Shown here: piece after piece, positions 1,585-41,120 of the stretch
Position numbering within the stretch: the first letter of the stretch is position 1
Layout of the letters: each line of letters starts with the position of its first letter
Source: Escherichia phage fp01
Length of the DNA stretch: 64,000 bases
Sequence record: NC_048731.1
Strand: one strand, 5' to 3'
Notes under the pieces: generated by a model
What the model was told of the DNA's origin: nothing
Seen by the model: only the letters and a program-made list of their open reading frames with translations
The model's database searches: none
Made by a program: the position numbers and the translations under genes

Positions 1585-1852
1585 CCTCCCCACTACAATC
1601 ACGACATACATCATAATCGTTGAAAGAACGTTCGTGAGCTTCACACCACCAAGAACAAGAATCGCAGAGAAACATTTCGGTTTTCTCTAGTGCTTGACCT
1701 AAAAGATCATCAGCTTCCTCAGCAGTAATCTTCAATCCGCACACATCTGCCACACGTTCTTTAATTAAACGACCTGCTTCGTGGTAAGACATACAGGTTC
1801 CCGCAACATCATGTTCAAGAACATGAACAGCACAGTCTAGACGAGTTTTCAT
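1571..1852 (-). CDS. hypothetical Cys-rich protein with acidic C-terminal tail
   Basis: ORF track 93 aa; C-terminus CDSCSWWC...CRDCSGEDEDE resembles the tail of the adjacent gene. Confidence 0.5.
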   Translation of the reverse strand: MKTRLDCAVHVLEHDVAGTCMSYHEAGRLIKERVADVCGLKITAEEADDLLGQALEKTEMFLCDSCSWWCEAHERSFNDYDVCRDCSGEDEDE

Positions 1853-1882
1853 TTCAAACCTCTCTCATCAATTTATAAACAT

Positions 1883-1911
1883 ATTATAGCAAGAAAAGAG
1901 AGGTTTAGCAA
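1883..1911 (-). promoter_or_regulatory. T5-type early promoter (-10 TATAAT / -35 TTGCTA, 17-bp spacer), minus strand
   Basis: plus-strand attata 1883-1888 and tagcaa 1906-1911; conserved flanking aatttataaa block. Confidence 0.55.
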
Positions 1912-1928
1912 ATGAATTATTTCAGAAT

Positions 1929-2276
1929 TTAGTCATAGCACCACCATAACCCACGTTTACGCATGTCATGATCGCGATTATAATCATAATTTTCTGGATC
2001 TTTCATCACGCGGTGGAGTTCTTGACGATTCCCCTGACGAACCATTTTATTAGAATGCCACTTAACATTCTTACTAATGGAATTCCAGTTATAACCATCC
2101 TTTTTCTCATTACGAATAGTTGCTTCCTTCATTTCTTTTTTGATGTCATCCCAGGATTTGGCATAAATAACACGAATCCAGTAGCCATTTTCTTTGAGGA
2201 AAGAATATTCTTGAGAGAATTGTTCTTTAGACTTCCACCACTGATCACCAGATTGTTTACGATAAGTACGGCTCAT
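1929..2276 (-). CDS. hypothetical protein (Trp/Tyr-rich)
   Basis: ORF track 115 aa. Confidence 0.5.
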   Translation of the reverse strand: MSRTYRKQSGDQWWKSKEQFSQEYSFLKENGYWIRVIYAKSWDDIKKEMKEATIRNEKKDGYNWNSISKNVKWHSNKMVRQGNRQELHRVMKDPENYDYNRDHDMRKRGLWWCYD

Positions 2277-2353
2277 ATTACCTCCATTAAGTCTTTTAAA
2301 TTAACCTAATGTGGATGAATTTTATTACACATATATTATGTACCTTTATACAG

Positions 2354-2386
2354 AAAAACCCCAGACTACTTATTCAATAGCTGGGG
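2354..2386 (-). terminator. rho-independent terminator (minus strand)
   Basis: hairpin CCCCAG...CTGGGG (2359-2386) with A-run 2354-2358 on plus = U-run after the hairpin on the minus transcript. Confidence 0.5.
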
Positions 2387-2397
2387 TTTGTTATTAA

Positions 2398-2703
2398 TTA
2401 CAGATCGGGGTGTTCATCTTCGAACGCTACGAAGCCATCAAATTCATCATTTGAAATACCACCAGTATAGGTGATGTCCGCAATCATCGCTTCCATTTTC
2501 CTGATCTCCGAGGTTTTCATACCTGCTTTACTATTCTTATAATATTTGCGAGGGTTCCCACACATCCAACAAGAACAGATGCAAGGAGTAGTAGTGATAA
2601 TACCTAACCGCTTAGGGCTTTCTTCATGTGGGAAGACTGTCCAGTACTTCTTGCGGTTGTTCTTCACACGTTGCCGGTGATGGCGTCTTAATGCTCGATC
2701 CAC
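2398..2703 (-). CDS. hypothetical Cys-containing protein
   Basis: ORF track 101 aa. Confidence 0.45.
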   Translation of the reverse strand: MDRALRRHHRQRVKNNRKKYWTVFPHEESPKRLGIITTTPCICSCWMCGNPRKYYKNSKAGMKTSEIRKMEAMIADITYTGGISNDEFDGFVAFEDEHPDL

Positions 2704-2784
2704 ACATTCCTCCTAAAACTTGGGAGATAAACGGAGTTTGCTCGACTACCTTGCGTAGCTGGGAGAAATCGTATCCAAACCCCA

Positions 2785-3153
2785 TTACATCGCCTGAGTA
2801 AATGTACGACTAATAACGTCGTTCTGTTGTTCACGAGTCAGTGCATTAAATCGAACAGCGTAGCCAGAGACACGGATGGTCAACTGAGGATATTTTTCAG
2901 GATGTTTCTGCGCATCCAAAAGCTGATCACGGCTTAACACATTGACATTTAGGTGCTGACCACCTTCGATTTGAGGGGCGACTTCCACCTTAACTTCACG
3001 GAAGGCTTCAGGATCGAATTGTGGTGTGATACCTTCTAGATCTTCAACTAGAACTTTCTGTTTAAGTTCACCATTGTCGGAGTATAGCTGAATAATCTGA
3101 TTTTCATGAACAAGGTTAATTACGCCAGATTTAAGATTTTGATATGCTTTCAT
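2785..3153 (-). CDS. autonomous glycyl-radical cofactor (GrcA/YfiD-like spare-part protein)
   Basis: 122 aa; C-terminus ...[35 protein letters not shown] carries the RVSGYAV glycyl-radical motif and GQHLNVNV block typical of GrcA and PFL C-termini. Confidence 0.8.
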
Positions 3154-3195
3154 TAGATCTCCCCGATATTAGAATTTGGCTCAGCTATTTATTCT

Positions 3196-3390
3196 TTATA
3201 CTTTTCCATAGTATACGGAAACTGTCTTACCAGTTTGGTTCATGACATATGCTACTTCATCTTCTTTTAAAAAGATGGCTTGATCTACTCCAACTATAGC
3301 CAATCTTTTATTTCTAGGATTAAAGCTTACACTTTTGCCTGTATGAATCTGTTCCCCATTCTTGGCTGACATTATTTTAATTGTTAACAT
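3196..3390 (-). CDS. hypothetical protein
   Basis: ORF track 64 aa. Confidence 0.4.
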   Translation of the reverse strand: MLTIKIMSAKNGEQIHTGKSVSFNPRNKRLAIVGVDQAIFLKEDEVAYVMNQTGKTVSVYYGKV

Positions 3391-3427
3391 AGCTGCTCCT
3401 AAATTTGGCTATCTCTAGCCCTTTTAA

Positions 3428-3503
3428 TGGTAGTTAGTAGTGGATTTGAACCACTGTAGTCGCTCCGTATGAAGGAGGTGCATAACCACTCTGCCAACTA
3501 ACT
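3428..3503 (-). tRNA. tRNA, anticodon CAT (Met/Ile2 family)
   Basis: cloverleaf read by eye: acceptor AGTTAGT/ACTAACT, T-arm AGTGG-TTCAAAT-CCACT, anticodon loop TTCATAC, encoded CCA. Confidence 0.7.
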
Positions 3504-3599
3504 ATTATGTTTTACTAGACTAAGTAAGTATTCTTTATACTCTTTAGACCAATTAGCTTTTTTAAACTTTCCTGGACGCATAGTCTTAATTCCTAAATT

Positions 3600-3676
3600 T
3601 GGTACTCCGGGAGGGATTTAAACCCCCGATCTCTCGGTTATCAGCCGAGTGCTTTAGATCGCTAAGCTACCGAAGC
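3600..3676 (-). tRNA. tRNA-Ile (anticodon GAT)
   Basis: acceptor GCTTCGG/CCGGAGT (wobbles), D-stem GCTT/AAGC, anticodon stem CTCGG/CCGAG with loop CTGATAA, CCA encoded. Confidence 0.7.
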
Positions 3677-3677
3677 A

Positions 3678-3905
3678 TTAACATTTTACAGCAGAACGTT
3701 TGCCATTTCTGGGTGCACCTGGAAGTCGTGCACGTTCTGACATTCTTCGCTTAATCTTTGAGATATTTTCTAGTGTTTGTTCTTCAGGCTTAATACCTGA
3801 AACACTACACCACTGATTACCATCCCATGCGGTAATGATCATAACACCATTACTCATGATCTTTTCTGTAAAAGTAATCCTCATTATAGCAACTCGTCTA
3901 AGCAA
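3678..3905 (-). CDS. hypothetical protein
   Basis: ORF track 75 aa. Confidence 0.4.
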   Translation of the reverse strand: MLRRVAIMRITFTEKIMSNGVMIITAWDGNQWCSVSGIKPEEQTLENISKIKRRMSERARLPGAPRNGKRSAVKC

Positions 3906-5030: not shown

Positions 5031-5108
5031 TGGCAGGGGATATTGGATTTGAACCAATGATCTCGACTTCAAAGGCCGAAGCTTTAGGCCAGGCTAAGCT
5101 AATCCCCA
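5031..5108 (-). tRNA. tRNA-Gln (anticodon TTG)
   Basis: anticodon stem TCGGC/GTCGA with loop CTTTGAA; T-arm ATTGG-TTCAAAT-CCAAT; position 1-72 unpaired; CCA encoded. Confidence 0.65.
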
Positions 5109-5114
5109 ACTGTT

Positions 5115-5190
5115 TGGCAGAAGGTAGTGGGTTCGAACCACTGATCGGGGTTTCAGAGACCCCAGCCTTAACCGACTTGGCTAACCTTCT
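5115..5190 (-). tRNA. tRNA-Gln (anticodon CTG)
   Basis: acceptor AGAAGGT/ACCTTCT, anticodon stem GGGGT/ACCCC with loop CTCTGAA, T-arm AGTGG-TTCGAAC-CCACT, CCA encoded. Confidence 0.65.
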
Positions 5191-5749
5191 TCTTAATACT
5201 TTTTGGATCTTTACCTGTTAAGGATTTATAACGTTTACGTAGTCCGTTATCAGATAACCCTAACTCTTTTGATGCTTTAACCCATGAATAGTTTATTACC
5301 CAATATTCTATTTGCTCTGCTGTAATATCAGGGCTACTCTTAGGTTTACAGTCAAAACAAGTTTTAGAGGAAGAATTTATTTGTTTATTACAGTAAGGGC
5401 ATTTATTACCACCTATTGTATGCCCCCTTTCAACTGTAGTTTTTATTCTATGCTCTTCCTTGGTCATGACCACCAGATTATCTAAGGAAAAGTTCAATTT
5501 ATTCCTATCTTTGTGATCCACTTCTAGTTCAGATTCTAGTGAAGGTAAATCTTTAAATACTCTAGCTAATAATCTATGCAATACAATAGAGACATTCTTA
5601 CCCTGCTCATAGAACGTTACAAACGGATACCCTGCACTACCTAAGTGATGTGTTAGTAATTTATTACTCTTAGTAGAGTAAACCTCCCCATATGGGGAGA
5701 TTAAGTATTTGGGATACTCCGGAATTACTTTGAAATTCTCTAATTTCAT
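5168..5749 (-). CDS. HNH homing endonuclease
   Basis: 193 aa; HNH motif VDHKDRNKLNFSLDNLVVMTKEEHRIK; Cys pairs CPYC/CFDC; 3' end overlaps the tRNA-Gln(CTG) gene by about 23 nt. Confidence 0.7.
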   Translation of the reverse strand: MKLENFKVIPEYPKYLISPYGEVYSTKSNKLLTHHLGSAGYPFVTFYEQGKNVSIVLHRLLARVFKDLPSLESELEVDHKDRNKLNFSLDNLVVMTKEEHRIKTTVERGHTIGGNKCPYCNKQINSSSKTCFDCKPKSSPDITAEQIEYWVINYSWVKASKELGLSDNGLRKRYKSLTGKDPKSIKKKVSQVG

Positions 5750-5750
5750 C

Positions 5751-5951
5751 TTACTCTACAGGAACCGTGGCGATTGGTTCTGGATCTTCTAAACGTTTGC
5801 CTTCATGATCTACTCGAATAACTCCGCATCCCTCGCAAATCACAACAGCACCGTAGCCTTCTTTAACTTCAGCTTCTGTAATCAAACCAGAAAGATCACC
5901 AGTATCTCTGCCCCACATATCAATGGAGCATTGTTTGCAGAAATCAGCCAT
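5751..5951 (-). CDS. hypothetical Cys-rich small protein
   Basis: ORF track 66 aa; CKQC ... CEGCG motifs. Confidence 0.45.
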   Translation of the reverse strand: MADFCKQCSIDMWGRDTGDLSGLITEAEVKEGYGAVVICEGCGVIRVDHEGKRLEDPEPIATVPVE

Positions 5952-29415: not shown

Positions 29416-31290
29416 ATGAATCGCAATGAAGAACTAAAATATAAAGAAATGCAGGCGTTAATTAGAAACTGCAAAGAGATTATCGAAGGGTCAGCAGACG
29501 AAGAGCTGCTGTTTAATAATGCCAATAAACCCTCAGAACGTTTTCCTACACAAAGGGATATGCTTGCAGGTGAGTTGAGTAAGTATCTGATTCTAGAAGA
29601 AATGCCAATTCAGATTCGAAATGCTCATATGATTGGGGATATTCATTTCCATGATGCTGATTATGCTGCATTAGGCATGACTAACTGTTGCCTGGTAGCT
29701 CTGGAAGATATGTTAAAGAATGGTATGAAGGTTGGTAATGCTGAAATTAGCACTCCAAACTCTATCACTACTGCGGCGGCTATCACTGCTCAGATTATCA
29801 CTCAAGTTAGCTCCCATCAGTATGGTGGTACTTCTGTAGATCGCCTTGATGAAGTATTAGCCCCTTATGTTCGTAAATCATATGATAAAAATCATGCGTT
29901 TGCAAAACGTTGGACTAAGGATGAAGCCAAAGCATCCGTAATGGCTACGGAGATGACTGAAAAAGAAGTCTATGACGCTTGTCAGGGTTTAGAATATGAA
30001 ATCAATACCATGTTCAACTCTAATGGTCAGAGTCCATTTATTACCTTTGGTTTTGGTCTAGGAACTTCTTGGGAAGCACGTCTAGTACAGAAAGCAATAC
30101 TGAAAGTACGCATGGATGGTTTAGGTATCAATAAACGTACAGCTATCTTCCCGAAACTGGTATTTGTACTTCGTGATGGCGTAAATATGAAACCAGGAGA
30201 TGTTAATTATGACATCAAGAAGTTAGCTATGAAATGTACTGCTGAACGTATGTATCCAGATTATATCAGCTATGACAAGGTTGTAGAAGTTACTGGAGAC
30301 TACAAAGTTTCTATGGGCTGCCGTTCATTCCTAGCTGCTACAGAAGATGGTGAAACTGCCGGCCGTAATAACTTAGGTGTTGTTTCTGTAAACTTGCCTA
30401 GAATTGCTATCGAAGCTGAGGGAAATATTGACCTATTCTTTGATTTGCTTGAGCTACGTGTGGATACAGCGTTAAAAGCATTGGAGTGGAGAGTTGATCG
30501 CTTAAAATACATTCAAGCTAAAGCTGCACCTATCCTCTATATGTCAGGAGCCTTTGGGTTACGCTTGGAGCCTGATGAGTATGTATTCGATCATTTCTAT
30601 AACCGTGCTTCTGTATCTCTAGGGTATATTGGTTGCCATGAAATGCTACAGTTTATGTTTGGCAAAGATGTAGACACAATGTCCGAGACCTGCATCAAGT
30701 TTGTTCAGCGTGTATTGCAGTACATGCGGGATAGAGTCGATCAGAAGAAGGAAGAAACTAAGTTAGGTTATAGCCTGTATGCTACACCATCAGAATCCCT
30801 ATGTGACCGTTTTTGTCGTCTAGACCGTGAATATTTCCCAGAGCATGAAGATATTCTGTCCAAAGGATACTACACTAACTCGCACCACCTTGATGTAGAA
30901 CGTAAAGTTGCTCCCAATGTGAAATTTGATTATGAATCTAACTTTACTCCGATTGCTTCTGGTGGGTGCATTTCCTATGTAGAACTACCGGATATGAAAC
31001 GATTCCCAGATGCACTGGAATGGGTTATTAATTATGCTGCTAGTAAGGTTCATTACTTCGGTATTAATACCCCAGTGGATTCTTGTGGTAAATGTGGATT
31101 CTTAGGTGAAACAATAGCATCCGAAGATGGATTTAAGTGCCCTATCTGTGGTAATCATGACCCCGAAACTCTTGAAGTAACTCGTCGAGTTTGTGGGTAT
31201 CTTGGAAATCCGGGTGCTCGTCCATTTAACCCCGGCAAACAGCACGAGGTTATGGGCAGAGTGAAACATCAGGATATTCGAGCTAAATAA
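29416..31290 (+). CDS. nrdD: anaerobic ribonucleoside-triphosphate reductase (class III)
   Basis: 624 aa; C-terminal Zn-ribbon CGKCGF...CPICG followed by glycyl-radical motif TRRVCGYLG. Confidence 0.95.
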   Translation: MNRNEELKYKEMQALIRNCKEIIEGSADEELLFNNANKPSERFPTQRDMLAGELSKYLILEEMPIQIRNAHMIGDIHFHDADYAALGMTNCCLVALEDMLKNGMKVGNAEISTPNSITTAAAITAQIITQVSSHQYGGTSVDRLDEVLAPYVRKSYDKNHAFAKRWTKDEAKASVMATEMTEKEVYDACQGLEYEINTMFNSNGQSPFITFGFGLGTSWEARLVQKAILKVRMDGLGINKRTAIFPKLVFVLRDGVNMKPGDVNYDIKKLAMKCTAERMYPDYISYDKVVEVTGDYKVSMGCRSFLAATEDGETAGRNNLGVVSVNLPRIAIEAEGNIDLFFDLLELRVDTALKALEWRVDRLKYIQAKAAPILYMSGAFGLRLEPDEYVFDHFYNRASVSLGYIGCHEMLQFMFGKDVDTMSETCIKFVQRVLQYMRDRVDQKKEETKLGYSLYATPSESLCDRFCRLDREYFPEHEDILSKGYYTNSHHLDVERKVAPNVKFDYESNFTPIASGGCISYVELPDMKRFPDALEWVINYAASKVHYFGINTPVDSCGKCGFLGETIASEDGFKCPICGNHDPETLEVTRRVCGYLGNPGARPFNPGKQHEVMGRVKHQDIRAK

Positions 31291-31389: not shown

Positions 31390-31770
31390 ATGGAATTAAA
31401 ACCCTATATAGTTGAATCTACATGTGGTAGTTTCCATCTGGGTGTGGATGATATTGCTGAGGCTGTCTTTGCTGCCACAGGTGATTACTCGCATATAGAG
31501 GGTGTTGCATACCCTACCATTATTGGCGATTGGGTGGGAACAAATCTAGATGTATCGCCTTATAACCCATATTGCTTGTTTGATGAAGATAGAGATGAAG
31601 TAAAATGTAATCTTGAATTTGTGTATAATAGAGTGTTAAAAGTATACCAACGTAGCCCCAATGGGTACGAAGATATTACTTGGAGTATTAAACAGTATCT
31701 TAAAGATATATACTCTAGTTTTTCTGACGAAGACCTAGAAACAGTTGCAGTGGAGTTTAATAATGACTAA
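31390..31770 (+). CDS. hypothetical protein
   Basis: ORF track 126 aa; no radical-SAM CxxxCxxC motif, so not an NrdG-type activase. Confidence 0.5.
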   Translation: MELKPYIVESTCGSFHLGVDDIAEAVFAATGDYSHIEGVAYPTIIGDWVGTNLDVSPYNPYCLFDEDRDEVKCNLEFVYNRVLKVYQRSPNGYEDITWSIKQYLKDIYSSFSDEDLETVAVEFNND

Positions 31771-39809: not shown

Positions 39810-39823
39810 TAAGGAGATTATAC

Positions 39824-40114
39824 ATGAACAAGCAAGAAATTATCTCCGCATGTGAAGCTCATAACGAGTTCTATCTTCATTACGAGAAATTACGCCAAAA
39901 AGGTACTACGTACCTTCAAGGTACTATGGATTTTTCTGATAAGTACCTTAGTAAACGATTTGCCCAGGAGCGTATTCGTCAACCAAAAGACGACGAGATT
40001 CTAGTATTTAGTCGTACTAATGATAGCTTCCGTTTTATTCCTGTAAATAAGGTGAAACGTATTACTTCATTGTCTAGTGAACTCGATAGAGCTACGCCAG
40101 TAGGCAAAAAATAA
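39824..40114 (+). CDS. hypothetical protein
   Basis: ORF track 96 aa; AAGGAG SD upstream. Confidence 0.45.
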   Translation: MNKQEIISACEAHNEFYLHYEKLRQKGTTYLQGTMDFSDKYLSKRFAQERIRQPKDDEILVFSRTNDSFRFIPVNKVKRITSLSSELDRATPVGKK

Positions 40115-40161
40115 TAAAGAAAAGGAGAGCTTCGGCTCTCCTTTGTTGTATATGGGTTATA

Positions 40162-40827
40162 GTGAAAAAGTTAACAGCAAAGCAAATAAATAAAGAATTA
40201 GAGCCGCGAGGTTTTAGTATAGTAAGTGAGTGGATTAATATAAGGACACCCGCCATATTTAAGTGCTCAAAAGGTCACCAATGGAGGGCATACCTAAACA
40301 ACATAAGAAAAGGTAGTGGTTGTCCACACTGTAGTAATAAAGCTAAGCTTACTATAGAGCAAATAAATCAACAATTAGCCAATAGAGGTATAAAACTTGT
40401 ATCCACGTATATCAATGCCCATAGTCAAGCAGTATTCGAGTGCGAAGAAGGACATAGGTGGACTAGTAGCGTGGATAAGATTAAAAATGCAGGAAGATCT
40501 TGTCCTATCTGTATAGCTACAAGCTATTTGTATATATTTTATAGCCAGCAGCTTGGAACAAAAATAGGAACATCTAAAAGTCCAGAGAGAAGACTTTTAG
40601 AGATCAAAAAAGATTCTAATCTAGAGGACTTGAGTGCATATGGAGTATACTCTTGTGAGGGGTCAGCATATAATCTAGAAAATAAAGCACATAGATTCTT
40701 TAGTGCTACACAGATATTTACAGAATCAATATTTGACGGTTCTACTGAGTTTTTCAATATTCAACCAGAGGAGGCAGAGGAATATCTCCTAAGTCAGGGA
40801 GCAATAAAATGTCAGGAGATAATGTAA
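40162..40827 (+). CDS. putative endonuclease with tandem zinc-ribbon repeats and GIY-YIG-like segment (homing-endonuclease-like)
   Basis: 221 aa; duplicated CSKGHQW...CPHC / CEEGHRW...CPIC modules, then YLYIFYSQQLGTKIGTSKSPERRLLEI; GTG start in ORF track. Confidence 0.45.
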   Translation: MKKLTAKQINKELEPRGFSIVSEWINIRTPAIFKCSKGHQWRAYLNNIRKGSGCPHCSNKAKLTIEQINQQLANRGIKLVSTYINAHSQAVFECEEGHRWTSSVDKIKNAGRSCPICIATSYLYIFYSQQLGTKIGTSKSPERRLLEIKKDSNLEDLSAYGVYSCEGSAYNLENKAHRFFSATQIFTESIFDGSTEFFNIQPEEAEEYLLSQGAIKCQEIM

Positions 40828-41120
40828 ATCAGGATTATGTTGGACATGTAGATGATCAGTCCATAGTTATCTGGGAAAGAGAAGATGGCCAACAGGTTAG
40901 GCTAACTGTATCTGAGTTTAGGGGGAATCTATACTTAGGAATTAGGTACTGGCTCCAAGATATAGAAGGTGAATGGTTTCCAACAAAAAGTGGATTCAGT
41001 ATGCCCTACACTCTAGAAACAACATCTCATTTATTTAAGGCATTTACTAAAATATTATCTAATAGTGAGGTTTTATTAGAAGTAGAAAAAGAAGCTAAAC
41101 GCCTGGCGGAAAAAGAATAA
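40809..41120 (+). CDS. PC4/Sub1-like ssDNA-binding domain protein
   Basis: 103 aa; QVRLTVSEFRGNLYLGIRYW...WFPTKSGFSMP resembles PC4-family domains. Confidence 0.45.
   Translation: MSGDNVNQDYVGHVDDQSIVIWEREDGQQVRLTVSEFRGNLYLGIRYWLQDIEGEWFPTKSGFSMPYTLETTSHLFKAFTKILSNSEVLLEVEKEAKRLAEKE

Follow-up and report, generated by a model that had tools for sequence, protein, structure and literature searches.

The GrcA-like locus and the phage genome that carries it

The window analysed here, that is, the whole stretch of 64,000 nucleotides from Escherichia phage fp01 (NC_048731.1), carries a gene for a GrcA-like autonomous glycyl-radical protein on the minus strand and, on the plus strand, a gene for NrdD, the class III ribonucleotide reductase (RNR). 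Both are listed in Table 1 together with their predicted radical sites and with a small ORF that lies next to the first of them. The GrcA-like ORF is read from 3153 to 2785, with its ATG at 3153-3151 and the stop codon included at 2785, and the plus-strand translation of the same interval contains many stops throughout. A promoter and terminator scan of positions 1800-3800 returned 8 and 3 candidates, respectively, as compared with 5.9 +/- 2.2 and 1.2 +/- 1.1 in shuffled sequences; these counts were not clearly over those of the shuffles, and no transcription unit was definable in that interval.

Table 1. Features of the window discussed in the text, with their coordinates and the evidence used.
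Feature	Position	Strand	Evidence
GrcA-like autonomous glycyl-radical protein, CDS, 122 aa	2785..3153	minus	ORF list, Pfam, PDB matches, identities, dN/dS
Codon of Gly97, predicted radical site in RVSGYAV (residues 94-100)	2863..2865	minus	computed motif position
Shine-Dalgarno-like GGGGAG, 5 nt upstream of the GrcA-like ATG	3159..3164	minus	direct sequence reading
Cys-cluster ORF, 101 aa, GTG start, AGGAGG Shine-Dalgarno	2398..2703	minus	motif scan; directly downstream of the GrcA-like gene
NrdD, class III (anaerobic) RNR, formate type, no ATP-cone	29416..31290	plus	Pfam, NCBIfam, active-site residues
Codon of Gly594, predicted NrdD radical site in RVCGYLG (residues 591-597)	31195..31197	plus	motif position

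The window is that of a T5-like phage (Tequintavirus, Demerecviridae). Its closest relative, Escherichia phage Lindwurm, belongs to the same genus and family and has a complete genome of 110 kb; the two are 97.5% identical over the 2.5 kb that surround the GrcA-like gene. This part of the window matches 447 phage records, nearly all from the T5-like phages of Salmonella or Escherichia, and the nrdD region gives the same pattern of T5-like matches. Over most of its length the window aligns with Lindwurm in collinear blocks of 96-98% identity, with lower values toward the right end, and its 23 tRNA genes are all on the minus strand, like those of T5-type genomes. The stretch between 56777 and 60859, which corresponds by its Lindwurm position to the tail-fibre or receptor-binding region, has little or no alignment to that phage apart from a 301-nt block of 92.7% identity, and identity is 86% from 60859 onwards. 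The segment at about 5041-5784 has no counterpart at that site in Lindwurm and holds a 193-aa ORF (5168-5749, minus strand) for a homing-type endonuclease with HNH_3 and NUMOD4 domains, the 3' end of which overlaps a tRNA-Gln gene (5115-5190). A 1.3-kb segment (39810-41117) is likewise absent from Lindwurm. It encloses the plus-strand ORF (40162-40827) of a 221-aa protein that combines a DUF4379 treble-clef zinc finger with CapR and MUG113/T5orf172 domains and that, given this absence, is probably one more mobile insertion of the endonuclease-like kind.

The GrcA-like gene has been retained over hundreds of genomes and four phage lineages. In tblastn searches its product matched 1584 phage records, about 430 of them at an amino-acid identity of at least 80%, and about 1000 T4-like and other phages matched at about 52% over the full length. 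The names under which it has been deposited include pyruvate formate-lyase, 2-ketobutyrate formate-lyase, acetyltransferase-related protein, autonomous glycyl radical cofactor and ribonucleotide reductase subunit, and the first, third and last of these are misleading as GenBank names for this protein. Its presence in T5-like phages is already known, identical or nearly identical proteins being annotated in hundreds of their genomes, and phage members of the family have been on record since 2001, so that the novelty implied by an earlier note on this DNA was overrated. Our literature search found no experimental paper on a T5-type GrcA.

The glycyl-radical domain and the N-terminal half of the GrcA-like protein

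The earlier note had proposed a GrcA-like glycyl-radical protein at this locus, and the profile search bears this out for the 122-aa product of the minus strand. The Pfam family Gly_radical (PF01228) matched residues 62-103 with an E value of 3.7e-18 (66 bits, cut-off 22), which was the sole Pfam match of the protein, and in PHROGs the protein was assigned to phrog_1209. The RVSGYAV motif, with which the protein had been said to end, is indeed present, but it lies 22 residues before the C-terminus. The best matches among PDB sequences were YfiD (6OWR, 1.4e-30) and PFL (1H16, 5e-27). In agreement with this, the C-terminal 62 residues are 80% identical to PflB 700-760 (over 61 residues), and the C-terminal 74 residues are 74% identical to residues 54-127 of E. 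coli GrcA/YfiD, which was the top match by both sequence and fold. A stretch of 12 residues around Gly97 is the same as in PflB and invariant in an alignment of 29 family members, and all the columns that are invariant in that alignment (39/39) are kept in the phage protein. Its C-terminus, TFTQAM, is like that of PflB (TFTQSM) and unlike that of GrcA (TFTESL). The likeness to PflB is confined to residues 699-760 of the latter, and the 700-residue catalytic barrel with Cys418/Cys419 is missing; therefore, the GrcA-like protein cannot be an enzyme by itself.

In an AlphaFold (AF2) model built on 29 homologues the C-terminal domain is predicted with fair confidence and shows the glycyl-radical fold, that is, a helix, a beta-hairpin tipped by the glycine and a second helix. 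The block-mean pLDDT was 71-84 over residues 71-120 (74-84 but for one block of 10 residues at 71), with predicted helices at 75-83 and 107-117 and a hairpin of strands 92-95 and 98-101, at the tip of which Gly97 is placed. This domain of the model superimposes on PFL (2PFL) with an rmsd of 0.8 A over 43 columns, and its top Foldseek match was YfiD (6OWR). For the beta-strands predicted in the N-terminal part the pLDDT was 54-70.

E. coli GrcA/YfiD resembles the phage protein in size and in its layout of a variable N-terminus followed by a glycyl-radical domain, and differs from it in the N-terminal 50-60 residues, residues 1-50 of the phage protein not being recognisably similar. What the two N-terminal regions share is a loose pattern with a nearly invariant Q5, and the T5-like proteins bear an insertion there, which in the fp01 protein amounts to 12 residues that other family members do not have. 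This divergence is reflected in the score against the NCBIfam GrcA equivalog (TIGR04365), which was 121 bits and thus under the cut-off of 170 because residues 1-50 do not match. The vs.6 protein of T4-like phages (155.7) and the GrcA of Vibrio phage KIT04 (138.3) also scored under the cut-off, whereas E. coli GrcA reached 234. Since the three phage versions fall below it and E. coli GrcA above, the cut-off separates bacterial from phage proteins and is no test of function.

Both halves of the protein are under purifying selection. In the comparison with the Epseptimavirus PHZ191, dN/dS was 0.17 for the whole gene; residues 1-60 gave 0.18 and residues 61-122 gave 0.09, and these low values in the N- and C-terminal parts indicate that both are constrained. 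A comparison with Salmonella phage GE_vB_N8 (MG969413.1) was discarded because the record is labelled UNVERIFIED and frameshifted; the GrcA-like gene is broken by frameshifts in it, most likely through sequencing error and not as a real pseudogene.

The closest parallel among well-studied phages is found in the T4 group. In the T4-like phage RB14 the GrcA homologue is vs.6, and T4 encodes there a 120-aa protein that is 98% identical to RB14 vs.6 and which we take to be the protein known as Y06I. The T4 and RB14 proteins share with the fp01 protein 52-53% identity over the full length, 52.7% in the case of T4, and the MKAYQ start; like it, the T4 protein is a stand-alone phage protein of about 14 kDa with the same glycyl-radical domain, and T4 also encodes NrdD. 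According to PMC8683613, which relays the work of Wagner et al. (2001), host PFL-AE installs the radical in T4 Y06I, and oxygen-cleaved PFL is thereby restored. Of the spare-part proteins, two have been validated biochemically, namely T4 Y06I and the YfiD of E. coli (PMC8683613; review PMC13450708), and the N-terminal region of YfiD influences the efficiency of radical installation (PMC13450708).

At the DNA level the T4 and fp01 genes are different. Over its 3' 185 nt, T4 vs.6 is 98.4% identical to grcA of E. coli K-12, whereas the fp01 gene is just 75-77% identical to grcA or pflB and would be an older, diverged copy. T4 vs.6 (KJ477684.1, 63546-63909) is in fact a mosaic, with a host grcA-like 3' part and a phage-specific 5' half, which implies that the phage gene has recently recombined with host grcA. 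Since the radical domain of T4 vs.6 is thus essentially that of the host, the transfer of its function to the T5-type protein is likely without being automatic.

NrdD, the Cys-cluster ORF and the search for an activase

The second gene had been described as an NrdD with an RVCGYLG motif, and this holds in full. Pfam NRDD matched it with an E value of 2.7e-172 (574.8 bits), Gly_radical matched it too, and the NCBIfam model NF006732 scored 844 bits, above its cut-off of 657, over profile positions 87-706 of 712. The protein is a clear orthologue of the NrdD of E. coli, T4 and KIT04 (54%, 48-49% and 53% identity, respectively). Its residues C91, M300, C302 and G594 align with C175, M382, C384 and G681 of E. 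coli, and it has a zinc ribbon of the form CGKC...CPIC; the conservation of this Met-Gly-Cys active site and of the ribbon assigns it to the formate-dependent type. Formate is the electron donor for the NrdD of both E. coli and T4 (PMC4390871). The start of the match at profile position 87 implies that there is no N-terminal ATP-cone and, therefore, that the enzyme lacks the dATP/ATP activity switch of its E. coli counterpart; T4 NrdD can likewise be aligned only from E. coli residue 92 onwards. The radical segment of 31 residues is identical to that of E. coli at 25 positions, as compared with 18/31 for T4 NrdD (Fisher p 0.10), and over about 80 residues of the C-terminus the figures are 48/78 and 38/80 (p 0.08). 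A mimicry of the host NrdD C-terminus is, at most, suggested by these counts, the difference from T4 not being significant. The ORFs flanking nrdD encode PhoH, NrdA, Sir2, HAD_SAK_2 and DUF7415 proteins, and a 126-aa ORF without Pfam family or Cys motif lies directly downstream of it (31390-31770, plus strand).

The two glycyl-radical proteins were said in the earlier note to be unaccompanied by an activase, no radical-SAM protein like NrdG or PflA (CxxxCxxC) having been seen among the ORFs of this window. The lack of an activase stands: tblastn with E. coli NrdG, E. coli PflA and T4 NrdG as queries found no NrdG or PflA homologue in the window (best E value, 0.4), and the Pfam scan of the ORFs flanking nrdD revealed no radical-SAM domain. 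The whole-genome search that had been recommended was run on Lindwurm, and the same three queries found no homologue in its complete sequence either (best E value, 0.4); as the window covers about 64 of about 110 kb, the absence of an activase from the remaining 46 kb or so rests on this relative of 96-97% identity. The E. coli NrdG query was sensitive enough, since it retrieved 2273 phage records and detected KIT04 at 4e-60. Thus, the lack of a phage activase for the GrcA-like protein and NrdD is confirmed as far as homology can tell. It is, moreover, a recognized condition, since T5-type phages with nrdD and without nrdG were reported in 2013 in a published HMM survey in which many phages, T5, EPS7 and SPC35 by name, carried nrdD and nrdAB only (PMC3653736); on this count, too, the implied novelty was too great.

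The nrdG gene is not foreign to the family. KIT04, which belongs to the Ermolyevavirinae of the Demerecviridae, has its own NrdG, 57% identical to that of E. coli, and therefore nrdG does occur in the Demerecviridae, its lack being specific to the T5-like lineage of enterobacterial phages. T4, too, has an NrdG of its own and differs in this from the T5-like phages. In KIT04 (LC487410.1, 38000-80000) the GrcA gene lies in the tRNA region, and those for NrdD and NrdG lie beside nrdAB.

The part of the claim that concerned the motif did not hold. An exhaustive scan for CxxxCxxC detected it in one real ORF, the 101-aa one immediately 3' of the GrcA-like gene, where C41, C45 and C48 form the pattern CX3CX2C within CICSCWMC; the remaining matches were in off-frame stop-to-stop ORFs of 31-91 codons. 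The 101-aa protein has an Arg/His-rich N-terminus (RALRRHHRQR), belongs to phrog_4499 and matches T5 ORF053/T5.055, and its homologues, which are also found in Erwinia, Xanthomonas, Rhizobium and Psychrobacter phages, share the invariant pattern RA.RRHHR...TPC.CSC.MC..PR. The motif itself, the position just behind the GrcA-like gene on a shared strand, where no terminator-like site separates the two, and weak NCBIfam radical-SAM matches (E values of 0.011 and 0.084) could be taken to mean that this ORF is a miniature phage activase or an Fe-S partner of the GrcA-like protein. We reject this idea, to which we give next to no credence. The radical-SAM matches are far under the cut-offs and at chance level, no Pfam family matched at E<=1 and the PDB profile search was empty. 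The 92 homologues measure 55-104 aa and none is longer, as against 246 aa for PflA and 154 for NrdG; C41 is replaced by Ala in one of them, CxCxxC being the invariant part, and the AF2 model is a low-confidence, all-helical one without a beta/alpha core. The distribution of the two genes is also decoupled, since the ORF occurs without a GrcA-like neighbour in two Erwinia phages, the T5-like KEY and the jumbo phage RAY, and does not accompany the GrcA-like genes of KIT04 and of T4-like phages. Judged from its sequence, model and distribution, the 101-aa protein is a neighbour of the GrcA-like gene and not a partner, and not a radical-SAM protein; it may bind metal or nucleic acid.

A probable phage spare part for host pyruvate formate-lyase

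With no activase detected in the phage, the GrcA-like protein and NrdD would depend on host activases, as the earlier note had anticipated, namely on PflA and NrdG; pflA, pflB, grcA, nrdG and nrdD are all in E. coli K-12. We believe that the GrcA-like protein probably serves host PFL as a phage-encoded spare part and receives its radical from host PflA, and that NrdD would receive its own from host NrdG. By analogy with T4 Y06I and E. coli YfiD, it is likely that PflA activates the GrcA-like protein and that PFL is thereby rescued. For NrdD, we infer both the use of host NrdG and the link to formate, and our literature search found no experimental paper on a phage NrdD activated by a heterologous host NrdG. 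The patching of oxygen-damaged PFL had been put forward in the earlier note, and it gains support from its match with the biochemistry of Y06I as outlined in PMC8683613. The observation and main interpretation of that note are correct, and the arrangement they concern is one already described for phages T4 and T5.

Both T5 and T4 destroy the host chromosome. Host grcA should therefore not be inducible after infection, which would be the reason for a phage copy. The GrcA-like protein would be made in such a cell, with its chromosome degraded by the phage, and host PflA, a radical-SAM enzyme that the phage does not encode, would remove a hydrogen from the RVSGYAV loop at Gly97. The radical-bearing domain would then dock on host PFL shorn of its C-terminal domain by oxygen at Gly734, and this docking would restore the conversion of pyruvate to acetyl-CoA and formate under microaerobic conditions. 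In parallel, host NrdG would radicalise phage NrdD, and anaerobic dNTPs would be produced with formate as the reductant.

These two activities could be joined even more closely, the GrcA-like protein sustaining host PFL after oxygen damage and the formate from PFL feeding the formate-type NrdD, so that both would form one anaerobic dNTP-supply module run wholly on host radical-SAM activases. We regard this extension as tentative and rather doubtful. The GrcA-like and class III RNR genes occur together in T5-like phages, T4-like phages and KIT04, and the same may apply to jumbo phages of about 350 kb, among which GrcA-like and NrdG turned up in separate records. The NrdD radical segment of the T5 lineage, which lacks nrdG, is also closer to that of the host than the T4 segment is, though not significantly so. 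In Erwinia phage KEY (MZ616364.1), whose host is a plant pathogen, both the GrcA-like gene and nrdD are absent at the syntenic slots. The first slot, with its flanking genes kept, is between a 63-aa ORF and the Cys-cluster ORF (within 75625-81843), and the second is between the Sir2 cluster and phoH (within 40000-66000). This co-occurrence, which is uncorrected for phylogeny, covers four lineages plus one negative case, KEY, judged by its syntenic slots only, and large enterobacterial phages often have a class III RNR in any event.

It is improbable that the same spare-part chemistry serves another target, such as the host 2-ketobutyrate formate-lyase TdcE or an intact but radical-less PFL. 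Several depositors have called the GrcA-like protein a 2-ketobutyrate formate-lyase or a pyruvate formate-lyase, but the C-terminus, as compared with those of PflB and GrcA, is closer to that of PflB. Even less probable is the other suggestion of the earlier note, a decoy or inhibitor that would soak up host PflA or bind PFL unproductively and so shut host fermentation. The protein has the exact PflA recognition loop and must, therefore, compete with PFL for the activase, and its N-terminal half is unlike that of host GrcA. However, a decoy would need the loop alone and not the whole docking domain, and the phage protein keeps all the residues that are invariant in GrcA and in the C-termini of PFL, including the C-terminal helix that packs into PFL. 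The purifying selection seen in both halves, and most of all the dN/dS of 0.09 in the C-terminal one, also speaks against a decoy, as does the ability of the T4 homologue to restore PFL activity in vitro, reported in PMC8683613; we found no support for this idea. That the gene is a captured 3' end of pflB that no longer has a function, which would explain why the resemblance is limited to the last 62 residues of PflB, is scarcely credible for an intact ORF with a Shine-Dalgarno sequence, a dN/dS of 0.17-0.18 even in the half that does not resemble PFL, and so wide a retention among phages.

The T5-type phages thus have a pair of glycyl-radical proteins without an activase of their own, so that their anaerobic metabolism would depend on host PflA and NrdG. 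The T5-type protein represents, in addition, a GrcA that has diverged in nature and whose N-terminal half, though unlike that of the host protein, is kept by selection. The dependency on PflA and NrdG could affect the performance of these phages in the gut or in phage therapy.
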